From Trypanosoma brucei (Eukaryota): DNA of 64,000 bases. The stretch lies in NCBI GenBank assembly GCA_000002445.1, contig AE017150.2:64001-128000 (forward strand), read 5' to 3'. Below are positions 10,101-64,000 of this stretch, piece by piece. Below the pieces are notes generated by a model, which saw only the letters and a program-made list of their open reading frames with translations, was not told the DNA's origin and searched no databases. Within the stretch, counting starts at the first letter, position 1; the number at the start of each line of letters is the position of its first letter. A program made the translations under genes and the position numbers.

Positions 10101-10129
10101 GCACCTTGGTGAGATCACTTTCACTCATT

Positions 10130-36586: not shown

Positions 36587-39500
36587 AACTCTCTTAATAT
36601 TATTAACTTAACTTCCTTTCCTTTTCTTTTTTCTCTGAAATTATAAATAACTGAAGTAAAATAATAGATAAGGAAATAATAGTGTGTGAACAGTGTAACA
36701 CAATATCAAATGTGATAGAGCAAGATAATGTTTACTCACTATTGTTTGTATAATATGATATCATAATGCATTTGGTATTGAGAGGAACAATTTCAAAATA
36801 TAGCAGCTGTAAATAAATATTTCCCTTGCTTCATTATCATGTGCTAAATATAATGAACTTCATACATCATTTCTTTAACTATGAATAACATGCAGACAAA
36901 AAATATTACTGCCTCATATACCTGCATAAACACTTCGTATATATAATCAATATTTAAAGAGAGTCAAATTCTATCAATTAAAATCAAGTAAAACAATAAA
37001 CAATAAAAATATATATACGGATATTAATGAAGCGAAGAAAAAGAGTATCGGCACAACACATACATATACACACACATGAATACGCACTACACAATTATAT
37101 ATCCTCCCCATTTTTACAATACGTAACATTTACTTGCATTGAATAAACTCATTGAAAATATAAATCACTTATCCCCTCCCCCGTGTATTCACTTACTTCC
37201 AAAGGAGAATATTAAATAATGTCTGTAGGACAGGTAAAAAAGAAACTGATAGTCTTTTTGCATCAGATAACCAGAGAGTATTTCCGTTTACTTTCATAAT
37301 AAACAAAAACATCATTTTGCCTTCAGTTAAAATAAAATTGAATTACTTGCCTCCTCACTGTTCACAACTATCAACAACTAATTCAGCGACACAAATTCAC
37401 ATGTATTTTATGTGCCTTCGTTGTTTGATTCATTCACACACCTTTTATGATGGTGATTATACAACTTATTGTAAAAAATTGGAATAAAATTAACACAATT
37501 ATTTGAGGAAACCGTAAAAGATTATCATAACATATCTTTTATTTTCCCTCCTTTCATTTACACAGATTAAATATGTAATGATACAATTCCCTTTCAGTAC
37601 GTGTCCACACTTATTGTATCATCATTGTAAGTTTCCTATTGCTCACATACACAAAGTTATTGGAATAACAAAAAATGAAACAACACATCTAAACAACTTG
37701 AAACAATATATAATAAATAAATAAAGGTAATAGAGAGAATGAGCGTGAACAGACAGATAATAAAATGAAACACGTCTCGCATTTTCCTTATAAATATTCA
37801 ATAGTTGGCGGATTACAAAACAATTACACATTATAGAAAGGAAGGGATATAATTACATTATACACCTGCATGTGGATATGTAACAGTGAGTCATAGTAGA
37901 AATAAATTGCCTAAACACAATAGTTATGGAAGATAACATAATTCAAAACATCAATAATATTATTCTATCAACATTCCCTTCCTTCTCCATTAAGTTTCCA
38001 AATGGTTTCAAATAATAATTCACATAATTCCATACATATGTTATGACGGGCATTGCATGCAGTACAATTTAAAGGAAGTGTAACTCATATAACATTTTCA
38101 AAAAAAGGTATTGAATGGTTGTTTGCTACCATCAATTACATTTCCAATGCCTAATTACACTTTTATATGCATGAAGGAAGTTACTGATCATAACTTTGAC
38201 ATACTCGAGAATTCATAACACAAAGCAGCAGCTGCATGCAATAAAAAATAAAAATATAAATAACATCCGAATTCATTTACTGACAGATGAGTGCAATTCA
38301 TTCACCCAAACTTCATAGCTGTAAACATAAACTCGATGCTGCCAATAGGAAAAAATCCCGCATAAATATTGAGTATCTGAAAATGATAGCAACGGGTTTC
38401 CATTTTTGAAATATATGCATAAAATACATGAGGTATATGAAGCCATATTGGTAAAGTGTCACTACGCATGTTGCAATTTACTATCAAAAGTGTCTGCCTT
38501 ATTTTATTTCTTGTGTTAATGTAACTCATGAGTATTATTCATTATTCTTTACAATACAACTGTAAGTCATTTTGCATTTTTTTATATTTTCTTATTCCCT
38601 CATGCTGGAAGTGTTCCACATATGAGATTCCTCAATATCGTTCACACAATAAAAATAATTTCATTTCCTTCTGCATTCAGTTTCTTGTGTAGCAGTGTGT
38701 ACACTAATCATCCATAAAGTTTTTAATTTGCCAAATACATCATTACGAAACTATTTTCCACAAATAAACAAACAAATCATTGGGACAATATCTTTGAGAT
38801 ATTTCCTTCACTATATTTACAGTTCAGTAGTAATTAAAATACACTTTTTGTATAATTCAACACATGGTGGAATTGCAAAGAAATGTGATGGTACTTATAA
38901 TCAATAAGTTCCCAATTTTCCTCACATGGTCTCCTTTCATGCCTTTACATCCATATATAATTCACAGAGAATTACTGCAATTTCTTTCATATGCTTTCAG
39001 GATTCCATATGTCACAATACAAATTATATATATTTACAAATTTGGACATAATATTGCTTAACATATAAATTATCACAAACCTATGATATTACACTCCTCC
39101 TAAGAATAAGAATCAAATTATTTCTATTTTGCATCATTACATGAAGCTTTGGAAAAGGAAAAAAAAGAATCAAACAAAAGGTAATGTAAAGAACACAGTT
39201 TTTTAATACAGGTTAAAACTTGTTTGTGAGTGTCAGATGCGAACACAAAATGTTCAAACAGGAAAACAGTAAAGGACGGTACTGATAATGTAAGCACAAA
39301 TTAACCAAAAATAGAAACATAAATAAAATTTAAAACTTATAAAAACACAAATATATATGATACAAATATTTACCACATATTATAATTCGCCACCCTCACA
39401 CTTGAAATACAAAGAGGACATAACACACATATGTGGTAAAACTAATACAACTCGAATATACATATGTGACATCTTCTTAACATAATCATTCTAATATTTA

Positions 39501-44731: not shown

Positions 44732-47269
44732 TCACCCTCCTTGCGCTCCCGCTTGCTCGTTGCGTGGCTGCGGCGCAGGCTCCATGGCCAGAAGTGGAGC
44801 ATCCCGATACCAACATTCATCTCTATATGCTCGCATTAGCTGCCCCTGCATTTCTTCCCTTAACGTTACTTGGTATTGAGCCATGTTTCTCCACATATCT
44901 GCCGCTTCGGCGGGGTCGTCGCCATCACAAAGTTGCCTGATGGTTATCGTGCCACCGTTAACCGAATTAATGTATATCATCTCCCAAACCATGTCGCGGG
45001 AAAACGCACCCCAATCAGAAAAATATCTTGCCATGTTTTCTCGGAACTTCTGCACCTTATCCGTAGTGGTGGGGTGCCTGTCCGACTTGGTTACTTGTAA
45101 AAGCACAGCTATATTTGGAGTGGTCGGTGGCGCTGCTCCGTCAGGGGCTCTCCTGAGCCGCCCCTCAACGAAAAAAAAGCCATCCACCACGGGTTCATTG
45201 CCTGTGGCAGGGCGGTAGAGAACCATGTATTCACAATTATCAATTGGTCGCTGGTGGGCCGCAGGTAAGGCCTTCTGCCCAGTGAGTTTCAACTGCTGAG
45301 GAGCCATGTCGTTCAGTATGCTTCGACGGTCAGCTATTTCTCCGCCTCGTCGCAGGTATTTCAAGTTGTCTGCGATAACTTTAAAAACTCGAGGAAAAAG
45401 AAGCGAAAGCAACGCCCTTGATTCAAACACGTTGGCTGCGGCACTCTCGTCTGACATCGTAACTTGACGGATAGCCATTTTCTCCACATCAATGGCAAGC
45501 AGTTTGAAAAATATAGCATTCCCAATGCAAACCGAAAGTGGCCGGCAGCGGTATTCATCGACGCTCTCTCCGGCATCTCGCACACGGACGATTTTCACTA
45601 ACCTGTGCGTTACCTTATCATTTCGCCAATCGGCAATTTTCCCCATTATGTCCTCGTAGTGACTTTTGTTGTCACCATTGATGGACGTTATCATCTTTTT
45701 TGCCTGAGACACACGTTTTGTGTACCCCGCGCTGTTGTAAACGCAACGAGGCACTGGCCCAACCACATTAATACGGCTCTTTATTGTTTCCCACTCATTT
45801 TTAAGTTCTTCTACAATCCTCGCCTGAGCTTCTTCATCAAGTGCCGCATAGCCTGATGCTACAGACAGCTTAGTCCATGCCACAAATGCCTTCATGTCAC
45901 GCACATCATCACAGTTTATAATAATTCCTACGTCTCTCTTGTCTTTTGACCAGTGATGAAAATGGGCCTCATCCGGAGAAGTGAGGAGAGTTACACCCCA
46001 AGCGTGAACCGGCAGACCATCGGGTGGCGTCTGCGCATTCTTGCATATGTCAACAATGATGTGCCCTTTTTTTTTCTTGAATACTAACGCAGCTATGACC
46101 CTAACAGCAGCTTTCACGTCTTCATATTGCTCAACCTTCCCCCCTTCTCCGGGTTTCTTGTTATATATTAAATAGGCTATTTTACCCACGAAATATGCAA
46201 CAACATCAAGCATTCCATCATTGAAGTGAAGCAATGAATGAAGCAAAAATGATCCAACACCATATGATTTACCAATACCAGGTGTACCAATAACAATATG
46301 TCTCGGTGTTATCTCAGCTTTTTCCACCCACCTTCCTTGCAGCCCTCGTTGGATTATATACCACACGCGCATAATTTCACGACGGATATATACATGCTTA
46401 AAATTTTCCAAGCATATCTCAGCGTCATCCAATGCAAACCCGTTGTATGGCCAACCCTTCTCCGAAGTGAGAACAAAAATCTCCAAACCATCAGGCCTCT
46501 CCTCAATCTCTGCATCAACATTCGCAGGGTCAGGAGTTATATCCACCTCCGCTTCGGTCCATATGCACTGTGGTTTTCCATCAAACACTTTCATGCCAAG
46601 TGGCTCTTCATTATAACCCGACATTACATAACTCCATTTCGCATTATATATGGATTCATACACTCCTTCAAGTTCGACAGCACCACCAGCTGTTTGGGCA
46701 GCTCGCTTTTCCGCTCTCTTGGCGACCTCCAGTGCTCCATCCAACCTTCCCCTCGCCATGGGACCAACAAATTCTCTTATTTCCCCTCTTCCCTTCTCCT
46801 CCCACTGACTGAGGTAGTAAATTTCTTTTTCGTCAAGGTACCTTGCTTTCCGCTTCATTTCAGAGAATTGGTTATATAATTCTTTATATTCCTCAAACTG
46901 ATAAAGCCGCCGTATCCTTCCTAGAATCCCGGCATCCAAAATATAATCCTCCGGGCTCTGGACAAACACATCCATGGCCACATTCTCTGTGTCATACGTG
47001 TTAAAAAACTTTTTCAGCAAAAAGTCATGCAGTGTCATATCCCTCAAACCCTCATAGCGTTGCAGCAATACATCTTCAATAGAACTGTTCATTGTCCAAT
47101 TGGGCCCCTCTTCAGTTCTCTGCCGTATTTGTGGAGGCTGAGCAGCAGCAGCAGCAGGAGGCGGTACATTTTCATCCCGTGGCCTCCTCATGGCTGCTTC
47201 AATATTATCTGCCACTTGTTGATTTTCATTATTTCCTTGTGGAGCTGCGGGACTATTTGCTCTTGACAT
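44732..47269 (-). CDS. RHS: Retrotransposon hot spot (RHS) protein, type-C N-terminus. Intact.
   Basis: 845-aa ORF. P-loop 'IVIGTPGIGKSYGVGSFLLHSLLHF'. The C-terminal region matches the RHS blocks (VVDGFFFVEGR, HPTTTDKVQKF, VWEMIYINSV). Its unique 3' flank is at 44400-44731. Confidence 0.9.
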   Translation of the reverse strand: MSRANSPAAPQGNNENQQVADNIEAAMRRPRDENVPPPAAAAAQPPQIRQRTEEGPNWTMNSSIEDVLLQRYEGLRDMTLHDFLLKKFFNTYDTENVAMDVFVQSPEDYILDAGILGRIRRLYQFEEYKELYNQFSEMKRKARYLDEKEIYYLSQWEEKGRGEIREFVGPMARGRLDGALEVAKRAEKRAAQTAGGAVELEGVYESIYNAKWSYVMSGYNEEPLGMKVFDGKPQCIWTEAEVDITPDPANVDAEIEERPDGLEIFVLTSEKGWPYNGFALDDAEICLENFKHVYIRREIMRVWYIIQRGLQGRWVEKAEITPRHIVIGTPGIGKSYGVGSFLLHSLLHFNDGMLDVVAYFVGKIAYLIYNKKPGEGGKVEQYEDVKAAVRVIAALVFKKKKGHIIVDICKNAQTPPDGLPVHAWGVTLLTSPDEAHFHHWSKDKRDVGIIINCDDVRDMKAFVAWTKLSVASGYAALDEEAQARIVEELKNEWETIKSRINVVGPVPRCVYNSAGYTKRVSQAKKMITSINGDNKSHYEDIMGKIADWRNDKVTHRLVKIVRVRDAGESVDEYRCRPLSVCIGNAIFFKLLAIDVEKMAIRQVTMSDESAAANVFESRALLSLLFPRVFKVIADNLKYLRRGGEIADRRSILNDMAPQQLKLTGQKALPAAHQRPIDNCEYMVLYRPATGNEPVVDGFFFVEGRLRRAPDGAAPPTTPNIAVLLQVTKSDRHPTTTDKVQKFRENMARYFSDWGAFSRDMVWEMIYINSVNGGTITIRQLCDGDDPAEAADMWRNMAQYQVTLREEMQGQLMRAYRDECWYRDAPLLAMEPAPQPRNEQAGAQGG

Positions 47270-50230
47270 AACTCTCTTAATATTATTAACTTAACTTCCT
47301 TTCCTTTTCTTTTTTCTCTGAAATTATAAAAAACTGAAGTAAAATAATAGATAAGAAAACAATAGCGGGTGAACAGTGTAACATAATATCAAATGTAATA
47401 AAGCGCGTTAATGTTTATTCACTATAGTTTGTATAATATGATATCATAATGTATTTGGTATTGAGGGGAACAATTTCAAAATATAGCAGCTGTAAATAAA
47501 TATTTCCCTTGCTTCATTATCATGTGCTAAATATAATTAATTTCCTGTATCATTTCTTTCTAAACCATATATAATATGGAAACAAAAAATATTACTGCCT
47601 CATATACCTGCGTAAACACTTCGTATATATAATCAATATTTAAAGAGAGTCAAATTCTATTAATTAAAATCAAGTAAAACAATAAACAATAAAAATATAT
47701 GGATATTAATGAAACGAAGAAATAGAGTATCGGCACAACACATAGATATACACACACACGAATACGCACTACACTACACAACTGTTCCACTGGAGTTTCC
47801 TCACTTCTGTCAATACGTAACATTCACTTGCATTGAATAAACTCATTGAAAATATAAATCACTTATCCCCTCCCCCGTGTATTCACTTACTTCCAAAGGA
47901 GAATATTAAATAATGTCTGTAGGACAGGTAAAAAAAAACTGATAGTCTTTTTGCATCAGATAACCAGAGAGTATTTCTGTTTACTTTCATAATAAATAAA
48001 AACATTCTTTCACCTTCAGTTAAAATAAAATTTAATTACTTGCCTCCTCATTGTTCACAACTATCAACAACTAATTCAGCGACACAAATTCACATGTATC
48101 TGATGTGCCATCGTTGTTGAATCCATTCACACACCTTTTATGATGGTGATTATACAACATATGGAAAATAATTGGAATAAAATTAATACAATTAATTGAG
48201 GAAACCGTAAAAGATTATCATAACATATCTTTTATTTTCCCTCCTTTCATTTACACAGATTAAATATGTAATGAGACAATTCCCTTTCAGTACGTGTCCA
48301 CACTTATTGTATCATCATTGTAAGTTTCCTATTGCTCACATACACAAAGTTATTGGAATAACAAAAACACAAAACAACACATCTAAAGAACTTGAAAATG
48401 TATAACAAATAAAGGTAATAAAGAGAATAAGCGTGAACTGACAGATAATAAAATGAAACACGTCTCGCATTTTCCTTCTAAATATTCAATAGTTGGCGGA
48501 TTACAAAACAATTACACATTATAGAAAGGAAGGAATATAATTACATTATACACCTGCATGTGGATATGTAACAGTGAGTCATAGTAGAGATGAATTGCCT
48601 AAACACGATAGTTATGGAAGATAACATAATTCAAAATATCAAAAATATTATTCTATCAAAATTCCCTTCCTTCTCCATTAAGTTTTCAAATGGTTTCAAA
48701 TAATAATTCACATAATTCCATACATATGTTATGATGGGTATTGCATGCAGTACAATTTAAAGGAAGTGCAACTCATATAACATTTTCAAAAATAGGTATT
48801 GAATAGTTGTTTGCTACCATCAATTACATTTCCAACGCCTGATTACACTTTTATATGCATGAAGGAAGTTACTGATGATAACTTTGACATGCTCGAGAAT
48901 CCATAACACAAAGCAGCAGCTGCATGCAATAAAAAATATAAATATAAATAACATCCGAATTTATTTACTGACAGATGAGTGCAATCCATTCATTCAAACT
49001 TCATAGCTGCAAATATAAACTCGCTGCTGCCAATAGGAAATAATCCCGCATAAATATTGAGTATCTGAAAATGATAGCAACGGGTTTCCATTATTGAAAT
49101 ATATACATAAACTACATGAGGTATATGAAGCCATATTGGTAAAGTGTCACTACGCATGTTGCAATTTACTATCAAAAGTGTCTGCCTTATTTTATTTCTT
49201 GTGTTACTGTAACTCATGAGTATCATTCATTATTCTTTACAATACAACTGTAAGTCATTTTGCATTTTTACATATTTCCTTATTCCCTCATACTGGAAGT
49301 ATTCCACATATGAGATTCCTCAATATCGTTCACAAAATAAAAATAATTTCATTTCCTTCTGCATTCAGTTTCTCGTGTAGCAGTGTGTACACTAATCATC
49401 CATAAAGTTTTTAATTTGCCAAATACATCATTAAGAAACTATTTTCATACACACACATACACAAACAAACAAATCATTGGGACAATATCTTTGAGGAATT
49501 TCCTTCACTATATTTGCAGTTCAGTAGTAATTAAAATACACTTTTCTGTATAATTCAACACATGGTGGAATTGCAAAGAAATGTGATGGTACTTATAATC
49601 CATAAGTTCCCAATTTTCCTCATACGGTCTCTTTTCATGCCTTTACATCCTTATATAATTCACAGAGAATTACTGCAATTTCTTTCATATGCTTTCAGGA
49701 TTCCATATGTCACAATACAAATTATATATATATATATATATATATCCTCTTACATAAGTTGCACATAATATTGCTTAACATATAAATTATCACAAACCTA
49801 TGACTTTACACTCCTCCTAAGAATAAGAATCAAATTATTTCTATTTTGCATCATTACATGAAGCTTTGGAAAAGGAAAAAAAAAGAATCAAACAAAAGGT
49901 AATGTAAAGAAAATAGTTTTTTAATACAGAATATAACTTGTTTGTGAATTTCAGATGCAAACACAAAATGTTCAAACAGTAAAACAGTAAAGGACGTTAC
50001 TGGTGATGTAAGCACAAATTAATCAAAAATAGAAACATAAATAAAATTGAAACTTATAAAAACACAAATATATATGACACAAATATTTACCACATATTAT
50101 AATTCGCCACCCTCACACTTGAATTACAAAGAGTACATAACACACATATGTGGTAAAACTAATACAACTCGAATATACATATGTGCCACCTTCTTAACAT
50201 AATCATTCTAATATTTACTCAGTGTGTGTG
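47270..50230. repeat. Terminal copy of the inter-RHS spacer (type-C 5'-flank, upstream module and start of the distal spacer module). It is truncated at the edge of the array.
   Basis: Colinear with 36587-39540. Homology stops at about 50230, where 'tatttactcagtgtgtgtgtgtgtag|tgatgatgatatgtaatcgacagtcc' has the break marked '|'. Confidence 0.7.
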
Positions 50231-53200
50231 TGTGTAGTGATGATGATATGTAATCGACAGTCCCTTGACTCGGAATGCGGTATTAACATGTCTCAGATGT
50301 TAAGCGTTCTTGTTCTACAAGGGAAGTCATTTGCCTTTTCTTCCTTTTTGCAGGAAATAAAAAATAAAAAGAAGAATTCAGGGGTTGTAGCGGATAACTG
50401 CCTCTTTGGATAGTAGCAATATATTATGAAGCATGTACCACAGTCTACTCAGTATTTTTTTTATTTTTTTGACTTCCTCTGATTTCATTAACTTTCGTCC
50501 ATGTTTATAAATGATACTTTTTGTGAAAGTTATAACAAGAAACTAACTCGTAGTTTTAGTCATTAGTTTCACAGTTCTGAATTTTCGTAATGATGCCACG
50601 GCAAAATATCATTATCGTTTCCTATTTTATTGAAGAGTTACTCTCGTAGAAGAAAGCAGGATGAAAATACTCAAGACTTCACCAACAGGGGCCAGACGTT
50701 CCTCAAAAAAGAACGAACAAAGAAGTTAACCACACAACCCTTCTTACAAATGAGCGTCTGTCAATGTGCAAGAAAAACAAAGGCTCTTCAACTGCACACA
50801 ACACTAGAAACGATATCAGCGGCTTCAATCCCACAGTTAAAGCCACTTGACGAAACACTCAGCATACGAAACCTTTGCAAAGCAATGTATTGGTTATTTA
50901 AAGAAAAAGAAAAAAACGTATTCCTTCACGTGCAGTTTGAACAAACTGCTAGCCTAGAACTAAGAGTATCAACACACACAGGTGATAACTACGCGTCGAA
51001 TATTTGCTGCCCAGCTGACTCCAAACTCACAAAGAGGAAACAACACGTAACCACTTACAGCCCAGCTGCTAGTGTCCTTTAAGTGCATACAAATACACAA
51101 CAGCAATCATTGTCACACTAATTTTAGGCATCATTTAATACGTATTTAACAAACATGATGCCCGACTCCAAATGTGAAAGGCACTCGTCACGCACCCTCC
51201 CCGCCAATTCCACAGAATGGTGGAAACGAAGCGGCAAAGGAGGAGCGGCGCGGCGCTGTTAAACCGAATAGCTGCGCATCGGCCGCATTGAGTTTGTGGA
51301 ATGCGGAGAAACCACCAGTTGAGTTTAGAGTAAGTGATGCCTCTCACAGAGCAGTGGCGGCAGAAGGTGTCAAGAACCTTTTTTTTAGAAACCTCCCGAA
51401 ATGCGTTGAAACGCCAAGCACTACCGTCACCCCCAGAGCAAAAACGTTGGAGAGAAAAAGCGAAACAATGCGTAGGTTGTGGCGCTGAAACCGCAATTAC
51501 CAACTGGCAAGGTGGATGGACCGCGACATGTGAGCGAGCAAGGGAGGCATCGCGATATGTTTGTGGAATGTGGGGAAATGTAAGAAAAGAGACCACTAAA
51601 TATGATAACGGTGTTAGAGCAACGAATATGAGCAGCGTCCAATTCCGTTTAGAAACCCTGTCCGGAATTTCTGTCCGTAAAACAACAACTGGCATCGCCG
51701 ACGAATTAAGGACAGAGGGCTGCGGGATGCCAACCAAAAAAAACCAACAATAGGCCACAGCCACCCCAAATCAGAAAGTCCATGTAAAAGTAACCAAATA
51801 CTCGCAGCTCAAACGCTCAAATGTTGGATACGCAGCAGGTGACACGGCGGAAGGAATATTATCCGGCGCTTGGAAGCATGTCACCACCGCAACGACTCCT
51901 CAGAAACTGGACAGCTTCAAGTGTGGAGTGGCGGCTTGCATATGAACACGGTGAGTGTCGGAAAAGGGAGGAAAGGCACAGCGGGAGGAGTGGCAAAGTA
52001 AAAAAGGCAGGGGGGCGGTGCCAAGACTCCCGAGCAGACATCCGCTAAAACCTACGGCATATGACATGTTTGATACGGCCATTGCAGCGCAGGAGGAACT
52101 GTTGCAACGAATCGGACATGACTGTTATGGGCCCGTCACTGCCTTCAGAGACTTTTCCAAACGAAAGGAAAGAGCGCATTGCGACAGAGTGATGCTGACG
52201 TGTGCAGAAGTCTGAAGGCATTATATCAGCGAGGTCTGTGGTGACTAAAAGCCTGAGATGGGCACATGGTTAGAAGGGTGGTGGATCCTGCGAATAGTTG
52301 AAAGTAGGGTGCCTGTACTTTATTTCTCATATACTCGCGTGCTCCGTATACAAAATATAAATGAGAAATGGAGCCAACAAACGCGCCAGCAAAGTGACTC
52401 TGTTCCTTTGCAATGTCCAGACAATTCGTACTAAGACTCTTAAAGCTATTGGACCGAAGGAACCTCACGACCATGTGCAGCCGGCAAACGTACGAAAATG
52501 GAGAGCTGGCCGGCATCCCACCCTCCACTTGACAGCTGCTCTCAACTGGAATATCGGGGATTATGGATGGTGCGGAAAGCTCATCATTTCGTGGATTCTT
52601 CTGAGTAGCAATGGAGTCTGAAGGTTAACCCAAAGAGTTAAAACGTTGAACAGACCTGGTGACCCACATGGTCTTTTTTTGTGTAAAAAATGCCGGACTG
52701 CCTTACTGCATCCCTTCGCGTGCATGCAAACTGAGCACAACGCAATGTCTCCTTTATTGTTTGAAGCATGAAAGCTCATGGATCATAGCCATGGGACAGA
52801 GGGCCTTGATTACGTTAGACTGATAGGACCGCTGTGTATTTTTTGTCGTTTATGTTGGGATTGGTATTTGATAGTAGCATCTGTTAATGTACAATCATTC
52901 TAGTGAATTCGGCACATTACAGTGATTTCTTTTGAGAGTTTCTCTTCCCCCTCACTCTGAGTAGATGTGGGGTAACTGGTTTCTTTTCTGACGTTAACAT
53001 GGTATGCCAGTTCTGTTTGGCAATGTTACGGTATCATCACGCACAGTTTCGAAAATTGTCTGTAAAGCTGTTTTGAATCCATGTTGCGGTTGTCACGAAT
53101 CCAAAAAATGATAACGGAGACGGGTCTGCAAAAAGGTATTGTGAGTTAGCGGCAATACTGCGTATCAAATAATGTCACATCACGATGATTACAGTGCTGC

Positions 53201-56200
53201 TTCACAACTTCAGCATAGGGGAATGGCGGAATCGTTTCAAATGCGGAACAAATAATGAGAGTCCAAATCTCCCTCTTAAATTCCCGTGTCCGCATAAACT
53301 GTATACAGGTGAAACATTTCTTTCAAGGAAACTGTATTTACGAGATTTAATCTAAGGAGAGATTAGGAATGCAGATACTTCATGCCTTCAATGAACAGCC
53401 GTACATCAGACCTGTCAACTCCATTAAGTGACTGAGGAGTTAACCTATTGTAAGGTGTATGGACATGGAGACATGGTTTGAGCAACCAACAGCCAGTATT
53501 CAGTACAGTTGGCTTATGTGAAACCAAAACGTCTGCATCCGTGTATGTTCAACCTGACAGCTTCGCTTAGCCTTTTGTTAAGCTGTACGACACTCTTCCA
53601 GGTGTATGCAACAAAATACAGTTATGCGCGTGATCTTGCAAGTGAGGATGGTAGTCTACAGTAAGCATGCGAAACAGGGAAAATATATATTGAGCTGCTC
53701 TGAATCCATTTCATGCAGAATGTAAGAGCACAACCCGGCTGATATTTTGATATGAACCAACACACTAAAGAATGATTTAAGAAGCAGGAAAAAGTTGATC
53801 CAAACTGCACTTAGCCTGGAATTATTTCCAATGCTCCTAGATAATATTGTGTATGATGCGTATGGGGATTTATTACTTTTTGAGGGAGCATGAAAAAGGA
53901 TGAGGAGCAGAAACTGTTCGGAAGATGACAATATTTACGATTCTTATTATTAGGTCGATATCGCCTTTGTGATGGCTTAATGGTTTAGTATGTATGAGTG
54001 CTTTATACTTGCTTTATTTGAACACAAACTCATGCATGCCCACAAATTGTGAAGCTGCATACCCACAGATATCAATTAAGGGCATCAAACTTTTGGTGTA
54101 AAGCAGTCATTTTCATATGAAGTTAGCATTCCGAAACAGCTACCTGGGAGAGGAAATTGAAGGTCCACCGCCCTTGCCAACACGCGTTTCGTGTGTATTT
54201 GTGGTCAAAATGGAGGTCATATGTAGCCGCACCATTTCATTGACCGCTGCGTAATATATTCCCTCACTTATACTCATTAATATCCACTGACGCCTCTCTT
54301 TTCTCTCTTTGTGTGCGGGAAGCAGTGCCGTCGTGCAGAGAGAATCGCAACATTGGATCAGAGAATGGATCTGGAGTGTGTTAGAAGGCAGTCAGAGACA
54401 ATAGAAGTTGTGACGGTTGTGGTGTTCTGGGTGAATTTGGATTTGATTAATGATGAACCTCCTCGTGTAGCGGTAAGAGACCCTGATGAAACTGCACACA
54501 AAGAAACTGGAGGAAGGGCTCACAATGGTCATAAACACGTCTTATGGATGTGATAATGTATGAAGTGAAAGTGTGGATACAAGGTTGAGAGTAATCGTGT
54601 GTGAGACTGTATTGGCCAATTTTTACAAAATGGGGATGAATTCTCTCCGTGTATGAATGCTGCGTTGGAGAGTGCAAATGATACGTTACACGTACAAGCT
54701 GGAGAGGGTGGCGACTGACGTCTGAACTTGGAATGGATGTAAAAGACATAAAGCATTGTACCGATGCGAAAGCAAAGGGCGCATGCATGTCAACGATAGA
54801 AAACTAGTTTAGACTCTTTTTATTCGGATATGCTTTGGCGGAAACAGTGTGCATGCAGAAACCCCGAGCATCCGACAACGGGATATAGAAGCGTTAACGA
54901 TAGTCTCCAACTCATGGAAATCCGGCGGACATCAACTCCTCTCAATTATAAGTTACTTCGAGCTTATCAATTTCCTCCTTATGAGGTCCCATTTCCTCCA
55001 CACACTTTTGCATCACAACAATGGAGAGAAGGAGAAAATGTTGAAGCGCATTATGCACTGTATCAAACTTGTTTGTGTATGTATTTGGTCTCTTCTGATA
55101 TGAGTCTTACCGTTACCAACATGTTACCGGCTCTAGGAATCCATGAGCGTGATGTACATAAAATATCACGAACTTTGTGCACGCCTTGGTGTTCCACTTA
55201 GTGAGCGTCATCAAACTCAATGAGCAGAACCACATGGAAGGAGGAAATTGTGTATTTGTATGCATACATGTGTGGCAATATGTTGGTTTGTAACACTGTG
55301 GTGAGAGTAAATGGAAGCATCTTTTAATATGGAGAATACCGCACATAAACACACCTCAGCGTATCGCCAAGAAATAATGGCGGAAACGGGTCAGACAATG
55401 TTGCAAAGATATCAGTCTCAAATATATACATATGACACTAGCCATTCTCTGGTCACACAACAAGGAAGAGCAAGGTGTAGCGTTGATTGGATGTAACGGC
55501 AGGATGAATCATTTCCTTTAAAGGACAAATGAGCAGATGCGCGTGTGCAGTCCAAACCGGCCAACTGTGCATTGCATTTCATTGAGAAATATTTTGTTGA
55601 TTCAGTAGGAAGAACGCCTTCTTTTTTCACTCTCATTTTACGCAGACATGACGGTCGATAGAGGTTTGTACCAGCTGATGCATTTACAACCGTGTACGGT
55701 GATAAATGTTAACTGATTGCTCCTGTCATGTGACTCTCGAGACGTTACCAGGTGACCATGGAATTATCTTAAAGATGTTTGGATAGAAGGGCATCTAATA
55801 GGTGCCGGTCTTCTAATGCAGCGAAAAGCTTGTAATGCATGCGTATGTTTGGTAAGATGCGAGGAAGCCATTGAGTGTACTGTTGTAGTTAGCTGTTGCG
55901 CACTGCATTGACTGGGTCTGGTTGTGGCACATCTCAGTAATGAAATGCAGAAACCTCTCATCCATCGCAGTGATCGGCAAATATGTCTTAATTAAGTTGA
56001 ATGGCAGGTGGTGTCTATGCATATGCTGGGTTGCTCGACCGCCAGAAACCTGGATTAAAGCAGCAAAAGGTGTTGTCGTTTGTTTTTATCCATGCATTTG
56101 TTCAAACTATCTGTGCATCAATGAGAACTATCATTGTCTTTCAGTATAACCAACCTTTCTACGCCATCACTAGCAACTCTCTTCCATCCATCATTGCTAA

Positions 56201-56244
56201 ACAAGATAACTTTCTTGATGAATTTCATTCATGATCGCACGCGT
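50231..56244. other. ORF-poor, GC-richer, non-repetitive region lying between the leftward-transcribed RHS array and the rightward-oriented genes. The leading interpretation is a divergent strand-switch region that may include degenerate element debris.
   Basis: No ORF longer than 209 aa in any frame. No recognisable protein motifs in the longest ORFs (50630..51082, 51135..51764). The base composition differs clearly from the AT-rich spacers. Flanking gene orientation is minus to the left and plus to the right. Confidence 0.4.
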
Positions 56245-58599
56245 ATGCCGGCTGACGAAGCACAGCAAGCTCCACCACCTCTCCCAATTACCTTTACGAC
56301 GCCAACACTTTTCCTGTTGCTGTTAGTGTTACTTCAACTTTATCAAATATGTGTTATTTTTAACGCAGATGACAGTGGGAAAGTTACGGTGAAGGCAATA
56401 TCTCTGTTATACAGTCGAAAATGGGACCTACAAGTTATCAATGCCGTGAATGCCGGTTTCAATGCCTCCCTGGCTGCTCGGAACTGGACGGTGGCACTCG
56501 GGGTGAATGTTGAAGTTGCCCGCTCCCCCTCATACGGCATCAATTTGGTCCAGTTTCTGAATGATTACCCGAAGGCACTAAATGGCGATGACGCGAACGA
56601 GCTGTACAATACATCAGAAGGGAACCAACTTGTTGGATTCGGTCCCATGACTGAGTATCGACAGGGCATGAGGGATACCTGCCGCATTTTTGCTTCCTGC
56701 TCCTTGGGGCCACTGGCGAACTTATTACCCCAGTACGTTATGCGATGAGTCACTTACGTGTGCTAAAGCAGGGTTTCATGTATCTTGATGGGCTCCCGGG
56801 AGGTAGTGAGGCATATAATCAGGCAGTGGATTTCATATGGCGCATGGGGTACAGTTTCTGTTGTGTTTTCACGGTGGAGGACAAAGCGGGTGGCCAAGGT
56901 GGATCACCTGAGGAATTCGACGCCGTATGGGATGAGTTTGCTGGGGGAAATCCACAGGCTGTGACTATGTTTGCCGCCATGAAGCCTGATGCCAAAAAAA
57001 TTCTCGTGAGGTTGGTGTCTGATCCGCGTACGGAAGATACGTTCATGCCAACTCCGATCTTATTGCAGAAATCAATCGTGCGCATCTGGAAAGAGACATT
57101 GGAGGAAGCGAATGTTCCGTTTGTTCCCCATCGTGTGATTCAGACGGGGTCAAATCCTCTCGCTGAGGAAGATTATATCGACGCGGTAAAACGCTTTCAG
57201 ACTGAAATGAGGAACTATTTGACTGAATACAGGGAGTGGAGTGACTTCAATGATGCGGATCACTTTCTAAAGAGTGACGCGGATGGGGAGCTGACGATCA
57301 ATGGCTGGATTACTGGAGAGGTGTTGGCGCGGGCACTGCGTAGTCATGGCTGGATGAAAAATCGCACAGCCGTCATTGAGTCGCCGTTATGTGATTGATG
57401 GCATCGTGATCGGTGATTTTGGAGGTGAGTGCGATAGCTTTACCACTGCAAATGATGCCACTTGCCGCTGCAACCGTGGCAGGAAGAACGTCTACATGAG
57501 GGAGATTGCTGAAAATTACCGCCTGCAACCGCTTGTTGGCAGGCATATTATGACAACTTCCTTACAGTGTTATATCGACCCCTCGTTCCTATAGACACCA
57601 CTCATCGGCCTCATCGTTGATATGGAAGATCACGAAGAGCTTCTGAGAGAGGTTCCACACAGTTTGAAACTGGTGTGTCCACCACGACCGCATCTGGGAA
57701 AGTTGGCGAGATGAACAGTTCCTTCCTTCAGAGGATTGCCACAGATACGCACAAGGTTTCCAACGAGCTCAACACATTGCGGCAGGAAAGGATAGTCACT
57801 GCCGTGTTTGGCATCGTAACAAAAGCGGTGCTCGGTCTGACATTCATTGACCCTATGACACCAATCCCCCATCTGAACAGTTTCAGCAGGAATGTGATCC
57901 ACTTGTCCCCAACAATGGAACAGCAGCTATACATGTTAGCGAGCTCCCTCTCCAGCATTCGTGCTGACTTCCACCAATTGCGTTGTAAGGGGCGGTGAGG
58001 CGTCCGCTTTCATTGATGCGCTAAGAAAGGCACTGCTCACATTTGGCTTGAACCTCAGCTCTACCGTTGTGTTGACTGCAGGGGACTCTGTTGGAGAGTA
58101 TCTTTCGAAAAGTGGTAGCACTTTTATCATTGGACTTGCTGTTGATGGCATTGTGGTAATTGAAGAGCATCTACGTATCCGCAACAAGGTGCGCGTATTT
58201 GTCCAGTTCTCTGGCATTGCGCTGCTGTAAAATGAGTTTGTGCAAGCCTTCGACAATAGCGATGGCACCAAGCACCTTTTGTTCGCAACAAGTTTGCTTT
58301 GCTACCCAGACATCAACACGACATCGTAGACTGTGCAACGGTTCCACGAGGCGGTACGTGAGGTGGAAAAGTGGACGCCGCTGTCGGTGCTGGGTTTCGC
58401 CACGGGTAGACTAATACAAGAGAATCTGCAAAACATGGAAAGGGTAACGTCCGGCCTGCTGGTCGACCTTTTCTTCAACCAAACAGTAATCATCATTGAT
58501 GGCATGCGTTATATGGGCCGTACAAACATTATGATTGCATAATCAACGTTGTCGTTACCGCTGATGATTGCATGTCAAACTTCGGTGCTACGGATATAA

Positions 58600-58679
<80 letters not shown>

Positions 58680-59192
58680 TCAGTGGGACGTCCGCTACGG
58701 TCAGATGCACCAATACTACAGAATCCGATGTCGCCGTCGTTGATGTGCGCTGTCCCCAACGGTAATGCCCTCACCCCCGCACAAGTTGCTGGTGTGGTTG
58801 ATGACTCTTTATTCGTTGTGGCTCTCGCAATATGTCTAAGCTTACTTGCGTGATTCCCTCTCCGGGGCACCCGTGATGACGACAGCGCGCCGAAGGAATC
58901 AACGGACCCTGTGACACTAATATTTACTGACATTGATAGCAGGACTGCGTTGTGGGCTGCACACCCTGATCTGATGGCTGATGCCGTTGCAACACATCAC
59001 CGTCTGATTCGTTCACTGATTGGGAGGTATGACTGCTACGAGGTGAAAACTGTTGGTGATTTGTTCACAATAGTGAGCAAGAGTCCCTTCGCTGCCGTAC
59101 ACCTCGCACAGAAACTACAGCTGTGTTTCTTGCATCATTCCTTCCGAAGGGGTTGCACAATTTCTAACAGCGCCGAATGGACAAATGCATAA
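56245..59192 (+). pseudogene. GRESAG4: Receptor-type adenylate cyclase pseudogene (GRESAG4/ESAG4 family). It has multiple frameshifts, an in-frame stop in the transmembrane segment and a truncated catalytic domain.
   Basis: The colinear plus-strand ORF fragments 56134..56748, 56745..57398, 57376..57594, 57675..57998, 57961..58230, 58333..58542 and 58911..59192 give, in order: a signal-peptide-like 'TPTLFLLLLVLLQ'; extracellular-domain blocks (KAISLLYS, AGFNASLAARNW, GELTINGWITGEVLARALRSHGWMKNR, IVIGDFGGECDSF, FSRNVIHLSPTMEQQLYMLA, TPLSVLGFATGRLIQ); a juxtamembrane 'FPLRGTRDDDSAPKESTDPVTLIFTDIDSRTALWAAHPDLMADAVATHHRLIRSLIGRYDCYEVKTVGDLF', which is the class III cyclase catalytic-domain start; and an end at 59192 after 'LQLCFLHH'. 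A TGA lies about 12 codons upstream of FPLRG in the same frame. Confidence 0.85.
58603..58678. repeat. (TG)38 dinucleotide microsatellite inside the adenylate cyclase pseudogene, just upstream of the transmembrane/juxtamembrane segment.
   Basis: Direct count: 76 nt of uninterrupted tg. It translates as (CV)n on plus and (HT)n on minus in the ORF track. Confidence 0.95.
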
Positions 59193-61195
59193 TATTACGG
59201 AGCGTTGCTTATGCACACAGCTTATATAATGTCACATGCGTTGTGATTTGTAGAGGGGAGTGGGCCACCAGAAATTGGGTCATTTTAATGTCAATAAGTT
59301 TTTACCGCTTCTTGGACCCGTCATTCCCCGCACTTAACCTTTTCGAACCGAGGAGTTGGTAAAAGACGGCCAAGCAACGGTATCGTCGACACCGTGGCCA
59401 TCAGTACGGGATTTTACATACGGTAACGAAGCGTGGGCATATGTTTTTCTTTAAACGTCATTTTTTAAATTTTTCTGTACATTGTTGCTGTCACTTCTAC
59501 GAAGTATGGCCAGAATGTTAGAGTAGTGCATTTGTGTGCAAAACGAAGAAAATAATACTCCCTTTGTTTTTCTTTCCCTCTTGGGTTGTATGAAAAGAGG
59601 GGACTCCTGTTTGTAGGATGACAAGAGCTGTTTTGTTTATTTCCTCAAAAAAATTGCATGCTCCATAGTTGCTCCAATATTCCCATCCCTTCATTGGAAA
59701 ATGACCCGTCGGCTCCGTCCATGTGAGTGAAGCGGTGGCCCTGATATTTGCCCTGATGCTTTTTCTTTTTTCCACCGTGAAACCTGCACTGCACTGCACT
59801 TGCGTTCCCTCATCCCCTCTTACAGTTATCCGTTTCACTTCCCCTGTTGAGGAATGCGTATTTCTAACCGTGCGAGATATCAAACAGTAAATCTGTCGGA
59901 CAAACAAAAGGCTGAGAAATTCGTCACATAAACTTATGAGCATTCACCACTGAGGCACGCACGCTCACCAACACCAACAAAGTCAAGCAAAAGGCGCTGC
60001 ATATTAATACTCAATGGCGCCATAATGTTCCCTTTCGTGTTCCCTTTTCCTTTTTCCTTCCGTTGGGGTTACACAACACTTGTGGGAACCCGCTTCACTT
60101 CGTCCTTTTCCAATTATGAAGGTAACTGTGTTTTGTTTGCCACACTTCCGCTTGTTATTTCTCCAACTGGTTTCACTTACAGAAGTCGCGTGTACACCAC
60201 TTGTGGAGGAAATATTACATTAGGCAAAACCAACAACGAAAAAAATGGCAATACATTCTAAAACATTCCCTCAACATTGCAGAACTCATGAAAGGAACCA
60301 TGGTTACTGCCACCAGGTTAAGCAAAGACCAAAAGGCTTTTGAAATGTGTTTTCGAATCGAATGTACCACTGGTATTTCTTTAACATGCAAACACAACAC
60401 AAATCACGGCATGCACAAACACGAGTGCCAAGCTTCTTATAGAGATATTTCAATACCTGAAAAAAGGGACCGGGACGCAAAGTTTGGGAATGGAATTTCC
60501 CCGCCCGTAACGGTGATCATCTAAGACATTCAATCAACACATTTCCGCCTGTCCACAGTTAATCGGAAACCGTAGTGCCCATATGTCTCCCTAATTACTG
60601 TTGTCCCTTCAGTTTTCACAGTAGATGTTTCAATTGGTTTCTGTGGCCGAGGTAAATAAAGCGTATGTGTCATATCCGGGAGGTGTTTTCATGTGTCTTC
60701 TCTTTCCGTTTTGTCACTGCGTTTGGGCTCACGCAGTGACATTAATTGAAAATTTAGGCCACTACCATAGATGGGTGGCTCGTGGAGAGAGTGAGGATTG
60801 GGATTATTCTAACAGCTTTGTGGTTGTGTGTGCTGTGCTTTTGGAAAATATTGCAGCCAATGAAAGGGAAGGCAAGTGTCACCTTGCTTTCCATGCTGCG
60901 ACATCAATGCATAAGAATTATATGCTAGTTGCTCTGCAAGGGAAGGTCGTGAAGGCGAAGGTTAGCTTCCGGTTTAAGGAAGTGCAGAGACTTCCTGATA
61001 CTACTGTCAGAAACTACTGTTGCTGCGTGCTCCAGGCACTGGGTCAGTAATTCATAAATACAACAACGAGAATAAAATTAATCCCTTGTGGCTGCTAAGC
61101 GTGCAAGCAACTGAGAATAATAAACAGTATATTTTTGCCACACTTTATTGATTTCTATATATATACAAAACAACCTCATTACAATTATCATTTCT

Positions 61196-61377
61196 TTTGT
61201 CCCCAAAGACTGCTGAATGAAGGTTAGGATTACTGACCATAACACATTTTGGCATGCACCTCAATTACTTCCTTATAACACTCCCCCCATTTGATTCATC
61301 GCTTAGCTCTATTATTAAAAAAAGAAAAAGCATTTCCTCAACACTCAGCACCTCAAGGAATCGGAAACGGGAACTAT
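61196..61377 (+). promoter_or_regulatory. Pyrimidine-rich tract with downstream AG dinucleotides. It is a candidate trans-splicing acceptor region for the LRRP mRNA.
   Basis: 'ccttataacactccccccatttgattcatcgcttagctctattatt...' is followed by several AG within 100 nt of the ATG at 61378. Kinetoplastid pre-mRNAs are processed by trans-splicing downstream of polypyrimidine tracts. Confidence 0.4.
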
Positions 61378-64000
61378 AATGTCAGGAAACCAAGGAAGAA
61401 AGCGACAGTGCATCTCATCACCTGAGCAGTCAGAAGCTTTAAAGGAATCATCAACTACTGGACAAAATAAACTCACCACCGTTACAATCACCGAAGAGAC
61501 GCGTGACGCCAGTAATGATGAAACTGTGGTATCATTACTGAATGAGCATGAGAAATTGATTAAACAAACGACACGGCTGGAAAGCAGTGTGAAGGCACTT
61601 AGGTGTCTCATGAGTAATCTCACAGCTATGAGTGGCGAAAGGCAAGGTGGTGTGTGTGATGACACCGAATGCATACATAGAGTAACATTATATAATGCTG
61701 CTGATAATGCCTTCAGTGACGAAGGACTATATGAAGGTGCTCTTTCCTCACTCCGTGGCCGCATTCATACCAAGAAATTAACCATCACGTTATCAAAGGG
61801 TTGGAAATTTAACTTAGAACGAGTCAGTAAGCTAAAACAGTTAGAAGAGTTACGCATTGAATATCCGCGGGGCAAACTTGTGAATATGATATCTTTGAAG
61901 AGACTGCACATGTTGAAAAGGCTTTGTTTCAGGAGCAACAATATTGACAACAATGACGCCCGTCACTTATTCAATATTGTAACATTGGAAGAGTTGGCTA
62001 TTACTGACACCATGCAACTGACAAATATCAGAGGAATCTCTCGCTTGACTAACCTGAAGTGTCTTGAGTTAAATTCCACAGATATTGATGATAGCTGTAT
62101 AGGGGAAATAAGCGCATGTGCTAAACTGTCCAAATTGAGTGTATCCGAATGCAACAATATCACGGATGCAACCCCAATTTCACAACTTGCAGCACTGGAA
62201 GAGTTGAATCTAAACAGCTGTTACCACATAACGAAGGGAATAGAAACACTTGGCATGTTGTTGCGACTGCGTATGCTTGACTTGAGTGGTGTTCCTGTGG
62301 AAGATAATTGTCTGAAGGATTTGTGTGACTGTGGATCGCTTGAAAGGCTGAACATTTCTTATTGTATTCAGCTGACAGATATCAATCCACTCTCCAATGC
62401 CACTGCTATTGAGGAATTGAACCTTAACGGTTGTCGCCGAATAACACGAGGGATAGGCGTTGTGTGGGCATTACCAAAGCTCCGTGTATTGCACATGAAG
62501 GATGTGCACCTGAGCGAGCCATCTCTCGATTCAGTTGGAACTGGTGGATCACTTGTAAGGCTCAGTCTTGAGAATTGCAAAGGGTTTGGTGATGTCAAGC
62601 CCCTCTCGAACCTTGTTACACTTGAGGAACTGAATCTCCACTACTGTGACAAAGTAACCTCTGGAATGGGAACACTGGGCAGGCTACCGCAGCTTCGTGT
62701 ACTGGATTTGGGACGGACACAAGTTGATAATAATTCCCTTGAGAATATCTGCACAAGCTCAATCCCACTTGTGTCATTAAATCTTTCGCATTGCAAGAAA
62801 ATAACATCTATTTCTGCAATAGCTTCCCTTACAGCATTGGAGGAACTCAACATTGACAACTCCTGTAATGTAACATCCGGCTGGAATGTATTTGGTACAC
62901 TTCACCAACTGCGTGTAGCCACACTGTCGAATACACGCATTAATGATGAAAACATACGGCACGTTAGCGAGTGCAAGTCTTTGAATACACTCAACCTTGC
63001 GTTTTGCAAAGATATAACAGACGTCACAGCACTTTCTAAAATTACTATGCTTGAGGAGTTGAACCTTGATTGCTGCCCTAACATCAGAAAAGGTATTGAA
63101 ACTCTTGGAAAGCTTCCCAAGGCACGTATCCTAAGCATGAAGGAATGTTACATGGGAGACGGATATGCGCAACAATGTTCCATCCTTGGGAATAGTAAGT
63201 CACTTGTGAAACTGAATCTTGAGAGGTCAATGGGATTCATATCTGTGAAAGCTCTCTCTAACATTGCGACGTTGGAGGAATTGGTACTTGATCATGCAGA
63301 GGAAGTATGTTGCATACCGTCATTTTCCTGTCTACCGCGCCTTCGAGTACTGAATCTGAAATATACGGACATTAATGGTGATGTAACTAAAAATATTTCC
63401 GAATCGAAATCGCTGCGATCACTCAACTTATCACATTGCAAATGGGTAACCGATATATCAGTATTATCTTCCTTATCGACACTGGAAGAACTGAATGTTA
63501 ACTGCTGCAACGGAATACGAAAAGGCTGGGAGTCGCTCGGAAAGCTGCCTCTACTACGTGTAGCAATTCTATCTGATACTAACATCGCCGCTAAAGATAT
63601 AGCTTGCCTTAGCAGTTGCAAAACGCTGGTGAAACTAAAGTTTTTCCGGTGTGAGAAGTTGTCAGATGTTACGGTGGTGTATAAAATTCAATCACTGGAG
63701 GAACTGATAGTTAGGAGCTGTTCAGACGGCCTCAAGGGACTAAATGACCTTGGTACACTGCCACGGTTGCGTTTTTTGCTTCTGCGAAATGTGAGAGGTA
63801 GTGATATATCTGTTGAATCTATTGGGACGAGCAAATCTCTCGTGAGGCTTCATATTGAAATGCGCAAGGAGTTAACAGACATAACACCCCTCTCCAACAT
63901 CACGTCCCTTGAGGAATTGTCATTGCGGGAATGCGGTGATAACCTGGAAGGAGTCGGGACACTTGGGAAACTGCCACGGCTTAAATCGCTGGATCTCGGT
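61378..64000 (+). CDS. LRRP: Leucine-rich repeat protein (LRRP; ESAG8-related LRR family). This is the 5' part only: it runs off the window end after 874 codons.
   Basis: Open frame from the ATG at 61378 to the window end (translated by hand; it is absent from the ORF track because there is no stop). After a ~170-aa N-terminal region there are about 9 tandem ~72-aa super-repeats. Each holds three LRRs of the form 'L.L..C..ITD...LS....LEELNL..C..I..G...LG.LP.LRVL.L..T.I.D..L..I....SLV.LNLS.C'. Confidence 0.85.

Follow-up and report, generated by a model that had tools for sequence, protein, structure and literature searches.

The window analysed here is a stretch of 64,000 nucleotides, positions 64001-128000 of Trypanosoma brucei TREU927 chromosome 2, and window coordinates, which are used throughout, become chromosomal ones by adding 64000. 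Its RHS array ends with the minus-strand gene RHS4 (chromosomal coordinates 108732-111269) and the AT-rich upstream spacer of that gene, and beyond some 6 kb of DNA (50231-56244) a degenerate ESAG4/adenylate-cyclase pseudogene, a DUF1181 gene and, after the latter, an LRRP gene follow on the plus strand (Table 1). The neighbours of the 6 kb thus diverge according to their Pfam assignments, as had been claimed in an earlier note on this DNA. The pseudogene, Tb927.2.660, consists of frameshifted plus-strand fragments at 56655-59189 with Pfam domains across three frames, and its major spliced-leader site is supported by 149 reads at 56206. It has previously been given as 'start of DGC, within subtelomere' (Tiengwe 2012).

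Table 1. Features at and around the change of gene polarity, in window coordinates.
Feature	Position	Strand	Remarks
RHS4, Tb927.2.560, XP_951486 (last RHS gene of the array)	44732..47269	-	Pfam RHSP, RHS_N, DUF7578; exact NCBI protein match
AT-rich RHS upstream spacer, final copy of the repeated module	47270..50254	-	92-94% identity to the spacers of other units
Tb2.NT.74, leftward transcript of the RHS upstream spacer	49863 to 47413	-	Kolev 2010 Table S7
Tb2.NT.75, trans-spliced and polyadenylated, without annotated ORF	51431 to 49973	-	Kolev 2010 Table S7
Bdf3 CUT&RUN high-confidence site, 400 bp around summit	50081..50481		Tb927_02_v5.1:114081-114481; Ashby 2022 supplementary files 1 to 3
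(GT)7 microsatellite	50222..50235	+	20 nt before the breakpoint 50254/50255
Longest stop-free frame, 211 aa	51138..51770	-	not a conserved gene
Spliced-leader acceptor sites assigned to Tb927.2.650	54069, 54104, 54107, 54339, 55025, 55027, 55137	+	Kolev 2010 Table S4
Tb927.2.650, annotated hypothetical gene, 123 aa, orphan ORF	54830..55201	+	exact match XP_951487
ESAG4/adenylate-cyclase pseudogene Tb927.2.660, degenerate	56206..59178	+	annotated start 56231; Pfam domains
DUF1181 gene Tb927.2.680	60625..61050	+	Pfam domain at 60625-61047
LRRP Tb927.2.690	from 61379	+	Pfam-scanned LRR protein from 61319

In a four-way alignment the homology of the RHS array breaks at 50254/50255, and by self-BLAST the upstream spacer of the last unit matches those of other units up to 50235-50254; past the breakpoint the other RHS units run on into a different 4.9 kb module. 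The end of repeat homology is as sharp as the earlier note had it, although its 'about 50230' lies some 24 nt early because the alignment places the break at 50254/50255, and it constitutes the border of an RHS repeat unit. The claimed switch in composition is borne out as well, GC content rising from about 0.30 to 0.50 (0.28-0.32 at 47.5-50.5 kb, 0.48-0.50 at 51-52.5 kb and 0.39-0.45 beyond). While array homology does end here, this is not only the end of this particular array, for both the junction and the adjoining 6 kb have a further copy on chromosome 1 of T. b. equiperdum, the one paralogous locus that was compared. There the junction sequence is identical, the 6 kb aligns collinearly with about 92-95% identity along most of it, and the copy as a whole is collinear over about 18 kb. 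Junction and 6 kb belong to a multi-copy segmental duplication which measures at least 18 kb and takes in RHS, the strand-switch region, the ESAG4 pseudogene, DUF1181 and LRRP, and whose copy number, to judge from the gene numbers, is about five per genome.

The 6 kb shows no coding signal. Its longest ORF with an ATG measures 186 aa and no stop-free frame exceeds 211 aa, so that the absence of a long ORF stated earlier is essentially true. In the right-hand 3.6 kb ORF lengths are distributed as in random sequence. When all six frames of the 6 kb were scanned whole and X-masked against Pfam at E<=1, only a chance-level match to SHLD2_C (E=0.28) was obtained. Likewise, tRNA and Rfam searches of the 6 kb gave no match, and the search for internal and tandem repeats gave chance-level short matches only. 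A bacterial promoter and terminator scan of the same DNA returned chance-level counts, its models being bacterial and irrelevant to this organism. Tb927.2.650 has six paralogues, all of them from T. brucei (T. b. brucei or T. b. equiperdum); no homologue was found outside the species, and the sequences make up one 90% cluster restricted to it. The 12 nucleotide differences from a paralogue are spread 4/4/4 over the codon positions, which is no pattern of purifying selection, and the major spliced-leader site at 55025 lies inside the ORF. Tb927.2.650 is thus probably a non-coding leader transcript rather than a protein-coding gene. Even so, the 6 kb was wrongly described as unannotated and without recognisable feature, since this annotated gene, published transcript ends and a Bdf3 site all fall inside it.

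Could the 6 kb then be what is left of an eroded non-LTR retroelement (ingi, DIRE, RIME or SIDER) that inserted beside the RHS array? Retroelement insertions are the defining feature of the RHS family. Moreover, the stretch is close to ingi in length, the plus strand of its left 2 kb is rich in A, with a coding-like GC content, and one of its open frames, that of 211 aa, is longer than expected, a length reached by just 1% of local dinucleotide shuffles. However, whereas the Pfam scan recovered the adjoining frameshifted adenylate-cyclase pseudogene as a positive control, it detected no reverse transcriptase, endonuclease or RNase H domain in any of the six frames of the 6 kb, and the 211-aa frame, searched exhaustively with HMMER against 1.84 billion representatives, matched T. 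brucei paralogous ORFs only. Nothing similar to the 6 kb occurs elsewhere in the 64 kb window, and neither a terminal poly(A) tract nor a target-site duplication is evident by eye. Finally, the copies are not dispersed but always keep the same gene context: by their gene numbers, all seven known copies of ORF123 (Tb927.2.650) are adjacent to ESAG4 pseudogenes. The likeness to ingi, RIME and DIRE is one of length, A-rich segment and proximity to RHS genes, and we regard the ingi-like origin offered earlier as an alternative as unsupported and highly improbable.

Another explanation is that the stretch as a whole, or else the GC-rich 2 kb at its left, represents a gene relic too decayed to be recognised, which would be compatible with a present role as a start region. 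The GC content at 51-52.5 kb resembles that of neighbouring coding regions, and between 50.6 and 52.65 kb five open frames of at least 100 aa were observed as compared to 2.3 in shuffles. In the bloodstream expression sites the gene order is ESAG4-ESAG8, which the succession of an ESAG4 pseudogene and an LRR protein may recall, and one possibility would be that the relic comprises genes once upstream of ESAG4 in an expression-site-like unit. Then again, no Pfam domain was detected in any frame, and for the best one no homologue was found beyond the paralogous ORFs. This frame sits in a T-poor block in which stop frequency is lowered in all six frames, and the long frames of the block overlap on both strands, as such a composition would bring about. 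In addition, the paralogues are separated by frameshifting indels, the 211-aa frame carrying indels of 1, 16 and 1 nt in the chromosome 1 copy. A gene relic is thus an unlikely source of the stretch or of its left 2 kb.

Transcripts mapped to this locus by others leave the 6 kb in both directions. On the minus strand, Tb2.NT.75, which spans the RHS repeat junction, has spliced-leader sites at 51431, 51420 (major, 30 reads), 51406 and 50343 (10 reads) (Kolev 2010 Tables S4, S7); on the plus strand, 55025 is the major site of Tb927.2.650 with 35 reads (Kolev 2010 Table S4). The spliced-leader sites are supported by low numbers of reads, and some reads may come from other copies because the paralogues are about 95% identical. 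The minus-strand acceptors show an AG and an upstream polypyrimidine tract, the plus-strand site at 54339 is preceded by an AG and a polypyrimidine tract at 54293-54310, and these elements are conserved in the chromosome 1 paralogue. The sites of the two strands point apart, reaching up to 51431 on the minus strand and starting from 54069 on the plus strand, and the 2.6 kb between them hold no mapped spliced-leader site on either strand (Kolev 2010 Tables S4, S7). We consider 51431-54069 a likely zone of bidirectional Pol II initiation. The published table of initiation sites for chromosome 2 begins further right, at Tb927.2.1560-1600 (Kolev 2010).

The strand asymmetry that the earlier note had proposed to look for is present as well. 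Cumulative GC skew declines across 51 kb to its global minimum at 51213 and rises afterwards, and change points lie at 51920-52546 for the G+T skew and at 52504-52668 for the T/A skew, those of the GC and G+T skews being significant by block permutation (p<=0.001). The inversion at 51.2-52.5 kb thus falls on the left boundary of the 51431-54069 zone and a short way to the right of it. Similarly, AC-runs are found at 49958-51770 and GT-runs at 52674-56859, which means that keto-rich runs swap strand between 51770 and 52674. This agrees with the G/T bias of the coding strand described for start regions, where G/T-biased sequence can be sufficient on its own for directional initiation and for the deposition of H2A.Z (Wedel 2017). 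As in those GT-rich promoter elements, the keto-rich runs lie on the transcribed strand on each side of the switch and a (GT)7 run falls in the Bdf3 summit window; unlike the reporter elements with their long G or T stretches (Wedel 2017), however, the runs seen here are short (10-21 nt).

Bdf3, a bromodomain factor, is a marker of start regions and the one chromatin mark that we checked: a published site places start-region chromatin in the 6 kb. Among the 11 Bdf3 sites of the window this one (50081-50481) has the top tag counts (Ashby 2022). Its summit, at about 50281, coincides exactly with the repeat boundary and lies about 1.1 kb left of the zone free of spliced-leader sites, a position that may partly reflect mappability because only unique alignments were kept in that mapping and its reads came from a different strain (Ashby 2022). 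Further sites were reported inside the RHS array and at 61318-61718, at the LRRP gene (Ashby 2022), and those within the array imply that RHS genes may have additional start sites. The junction at 50 kb need therefore not be the sole source of leftward transcription.

These additional sites, together with a summit at the repeat edge instead of the centre of the stretch, would also suit an inert spacer at a recombination junction, in which nothing initiates and which is merely read through from start sites in the RHS array or at LRRP. But why would processed transcripts of opposite polarity arise inside such a spacer and point apart? This arrangement requires either initiation between them or convergent read-through, and against the latter speaks that antisense spliced-leader sites were not reported (Kolev 2010). 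The skew inversion, which is significant and sits at the left edge of the zone that separates the two groups of sites and just inside it, speaks against a spacer too, and we give this explanation very little credence.

Four independent lines of evidence, namely the diverging genes, the divergent spliced-leader sites, the Bdf3 site and the skew inversion, support the divergent strand-switch region proposed by the earlier note. We put the probability at roughly 0.8 that the 6 kb is an ordinary region of this kind, from which non-coding leader RNAs are made both ways, and not a decayed retroelement. Bidirectional initiation by Pol II most likely takes place in the interval of roughly 51.4-54.1 kb. 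The leftward precursor would be processed by trans-splicing and polyadenylation into Tb2.NT.75, then Tb2.NT.74 and then RHS4 mRNA; rightward, Tb927.2.650 transcripts would be followed by the ESAG4 pseudogene RNA, DUF1181 and LRRP. The region bears start-region chromatin to which Bdf3 is bound, and G and T are enriched on each coding strand, the bias expected of trypanosomatid start regions. With its diverging gene clusters, several kilobases of non-coding DNA, Bdf3-marked chromatin, processed transcripts leaving both ways, G and T bias of each coding strand and lack of a defined promoter motif, the locus resembles other divergent strand-switch and Pol II start regions of T. brucei (Siegel 2009; Kolev 2010; Wedel 2017). 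It differs from the usual ones in that it lies in a subtelomere-like part of the chromosome rich in RHS, ESAG and LRRP genes, is multi-copy at about 95% identity, and has non-coding or pseudogene RNAs as its first products.

The multi-copy state bears on how such loci are seen. Being present in several copies at about 95% identity, this locus is only partly covered by published unique-read maps, and studies that discard multi-mapping reads consequently under-report the start region. The copies themselves are not alike in every respect, as the Tb927.2.900 copy has no called Bdf3 site at the equivalent position. It is conceivable, if rather doubtful, that the 51.4-54.1 kb core is a sequence-defined bidirectional Pol II promoter cassette which has been copied together with its RHS and ESAG4-pseudogene/LRRP neighbours to about five genomic sites, the copies differing in Bdf3 occupancy; if this were true, the copies would provide natural replicates in which to look for the determinants of promoter activity in trypanosomes. 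As strand-switch regions are a known kind of feature and the locus has already been charted, our analysis has little importance beyond annotation. The likely zone of initiation is thereby reduced to about 2.6 kb at this locus, and the result confirms that a trypanosome start region can be flagged from composition and polarity alone.

The 6-kb stretch between the last RHS gene (RHS4, Tb927.2.560) and the ESAG4 pseudogene Tb927.2.660, at 50255-56246, is most probably a divergent strand-switch region that acts as a Pol II start region, a reading on which all lines of evidence agree and to which we give a probability of about 0.8. The offset of the window was fixed from gene coordinates that Ashby et al. 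2022 (PMC9241505) give in a supplementary table, which place it at Tb927_02_v5.1:64001-128000. Exact-sequence look-up identified several ORFs of the window as TREU927 chromosome 2 proteins of Trypanosoma brucei brucei, and Pfam confirmed the change of polarity described in the earlier note, from RHS on the minus strand to the adenylate-cyclase pseudogene, DUF1181 and an LRR protein on the plus strand. The order of the latter three in 56231-64000, which runs from the ESAG4 pseudogene through DUF1181 to the LRR protein, is one that we take to resemble the ESAG4-ESAG8 order of bloodstream expression sites.

Features of the strand switch and its surroundings, in window coordinates
Feature	Position	Strand	Source
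Tb2.NT.75	51431 to 49973	minus	Kolev 2010 (PMC2936537)
Tb2.NT.75 acceptor sites	51431, 51420 (30 reads), 51406, 50343 (10 reads)	minus	Kolev 2010 (PMC2936537)
Tb2.NT.74	49863 to 47413	minus	Kolev 2010 (PMC2936537)
RHS4 acceptor upstream of start codon	47333 (one read)	minus	Kolev 2010 (PMC2936537)
RHS gene (= XP_951486)	44732-47269	minus	exact-sequence look-up; RHS protein by Pfam
Longest stop-free frame, 211 aa	51138-51770	minus	
Tb927.2.650-assigned acceptors	54069, 54104, 54107, 54339, 55025 (35 reads), 55027, 55137	plus	Kolev 2010 (PMC2936537)
123-aa ORF Tb927.2.650	54830-55201	plus	exact-sequence look-up
ESAG4 pseudogene major acceptor	56206 (149 reads)	plus	Kolev 2010 (PMC2936537)
Frameshifted adenylate-cyclase pseudogene; LRR protein		plus	Pfam
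DUF1181 ORF Tb927.2.680	60625-61050	plus	exact-sequence look-up; Pfam
LRRP Tb927.2.690 spliced-leader sites	61209, 61307		
Bdf3 consensus sites inside the RHS array	1285-1685, 17270-17670, 24774-25174, 25668-26068, 28380-28780, 37368-37768		

The transcript ends come from two tables of Kolev et al. 2010 (PMC2936537), S4 for the spliced-leader acceptors and S7 for the novel transcripts; reads may be shared between copies, as the paralogues are about 95% identical. The initiation sites that this study tabulates for chromosome 2 begin further right, at Tb927.2.1560-1600. At the main acceptor sites the sequence holds an AG dinucleotide and an upstream polypyrimidine tract on the correct strand, both kept in the paralogue, and these signals validate the coordinate conversion. 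Acceptors lie divergently on both strands, and therefore processed RNAs exit the stretch both ways, while the 2.6 kb in between (51431-54069) have no acceptor site on either strand in these tables. The major acceptor assigned to Tb927.2.650 is internal to the ORF; that of the paralogue Tb927.2.900 precedes the ATG by 507 nt. The main transcript of the Tb927.2.650 copy probably does not yield the annotated protein. Most of the spliced-leader reads assigned to RHS4 are likewise intra-ORF, at 45345-45387 (chromosome 109345-109387; 34 reads at 109378).

Strand asymmetry, which the earlier note had named as a check, inverts around the left edge of the acceptor-free zone. Summed from position 1, the GC skew declines steadily until its global minimum at 51213 and rises thereafter, and the G+T skew has its change point at 51920-52546 (block-permutation p≤0.001 for each inversion). 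Relative to that zone, the GC inversion is some 0.2 kb to the left, and the change points of G+T and T/A skew are inside it, in its left 1.2 kb. Keto-rich runs of at least 10 nt are on the minus strand across 49958-51770 and, from 52674 to 56859, on the plus strand in seven of ten cases, in agreement with the G and T bias of coding strands that Wedel 2017 reported for start regions. That the stretch is an inert spacer crossed by read-through is very improbable: the divergence of the processed transcripts and the inversion of the skew both contradict it. In the start region that we favour, the left 1.2 kb (50255-51431) would be a leader transcribed leftward and the right 2.2 kb (54069-56246) a leader transcribed rightward, and Pol II would most likely initiate in the middle 2.6 kb.

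Chromatin data are consistent with the start-region reading. Bdf3, known to mark start regions in T. brucei, has a 'high-confidence' CUT&RUN site at Tb927_02_v5.1:114081-114481 (window 50081-50481) in a study that used unique alignments only (Ashby et al. 2022, PMC9241505). Its tag counts (~1,800-11,900) are the highest among the 11 consensus sites of the window, and its summit falls at the edge of the repeat, with the central zone beginning about 1.1 kb to its right. Together with the divergent genes, the processed transcripts leaving both ways and the skew inversion, this site supports the divergent strand switch proposed in the earlier note. Moreover, Tiengwe et al. 2012 entered Tb927.2.660 as 'start of DGC, within subtelomere'.

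Bdf3 sites also occur inside the RHS array, some in AT-rich spacers upstream of single RHS genes and some with high counts (up to ~8,700 at 17270-17670). The array is therefore possibly not one long transcription unit, and individual RHS units may have start-region chromatin of their own. A second dynamic site, at 61318-61718, lies just upstream of the LRRP gene Tb927.2.690 and overlaps its start, so that an internal start region may exist only some 5 kb past the start of the ESAG4 pseudogene. The paralogous Tb927.2.900 copy has a strong Bdf3 site at the LRRP-equivalent place (chromosome positions 159403-159803), and none is called at the strand switch of that copy. Inside the ESAG4 pseudogene, a perfect (TG)38 microsatellite (58603-58678) marks the transition from extracellular-domain to catalytic-domain matches, and a weak Bdf3 consensus site (58599-58999) begins exactly there. 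Of the window's three perfect GT runs, two, (TG)38 and the (GT)7 in 50081-50481, fall within Bdf3 summit windows, an overlap that could reflect either GT-driven chromatin or a low-complexity mapping artefact.

Self-comparison finds five RHS units in the window, and the upstream spacer of the last one is 92-94% identical to the others as far as 50235-50254 and not beyond. A four-way alignment puts the homology breakpoint at 50254/50255, 20 nt past the (GT)7 run, where the other units run on into a different module of 4.9 kb. The sharp end of RHS homology seen earlier is hence real, with its true position about 24 nt further right, and the accompanying switch in composition is borne out by a GC content that goes from 0.28-0.32 up to 0.48-0.50 and then stays at 0.39-0.45. 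With break, GC rise and Pfam polarity all verified, the sequence-level observation is correct. The RHS copy at 26028-29736 is interrupted, its two open frames measuring 347 and 349 aa, and is thus a pseudogene inside the array. No RHS unit has a RIME- or ingi-sized insertion relative to the others.

Window 45865-64000 has a collinear counterpart on T. b. equiperdum chromosome 1, with the same junction between RHS spacer and 6 kb. Identity is 81% in the RHS gene body, about 92% in the spacer and, rightwards of 50178, about 95%. These two copies, the only ones compared, differ by 2-10% per 300 bp and share no strongly conserved island. By gene numbering, paralogues of the 123-aa ORF are paired with ESAG4 pseudogenes at Tb927.1.270/.275, Tb927.2.650/.660, Tb927.2.900/.910, Tb927.2.1250/.1260 and Tb927.4.120/.130. 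Collinearity and pairing together make the array end and the 6 kb part of a segmental duplication of at least 18 kb, which the gene numbering suggests to exist in about five copies.

Six-frame Pfam scanning of whole-frame translations (stop codons masked, E≤1) found no family in the 6 kb, bar one chance-level match. The same procedure recovered adenylate-cyclase domains across frames in the neighbouring pseudogene, so the negative is meaningful for Pfam-covered families, including reverse transcriptase and endonuclease. Neither tRNA, Rfam match nor internal repeats were found in the stretch, nor similarity to the remainder of the window. The length of its 211-aa frame is equalled in only 1% of local dinucleotide shuffles; however, the frame sits in a T-poor block with fewer stops in all six frames, is overlapped by long frames on the opposite strand, carries 1-, 16- and 1-nt indels in a paralogue and, among 1.84 billion representative proteins searched exhaustively with HMMER, matches only paralogous T. 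brucei ORFs. Tb927.2.650 has no relative beyond one cluster confined to T. brucei, differs from a paralogue at 12 nucleotides spread 4/4/4 over the codon positions, and is probably non-coding. Judged by sequence, the stretch is without detectable protein-coding content. The absence of a long ORF, as given in the earlier note, essentially holds; its claim of an unannotated stretch lacking recognisable features gives way to the annotated Tb927.2.650, the published transcript ends and the Bdf3 site.

The suggestion that the stretch is an eroded ingi-like element found no support and is highly unlikely, with no reverse transcriptase or endonuclease remnants in six-frame Pfam, no dispersed copies, and neither A-tail nor target-site duplication evident by eye. 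Somewhat less doubtful, though still unlikely, is that the stretch or its GC-rich left 2 kb descends from a gene decayed past recognition, an origin that would leave its present role unchanged. As a divergent start region, the stretch is typical of a class that is well described, at a locus already in published genome-wide tables. Among T. brucei start regions it is unusual only in its multi-copy state and in that its first products are non-coding and pseudogene RNAs.
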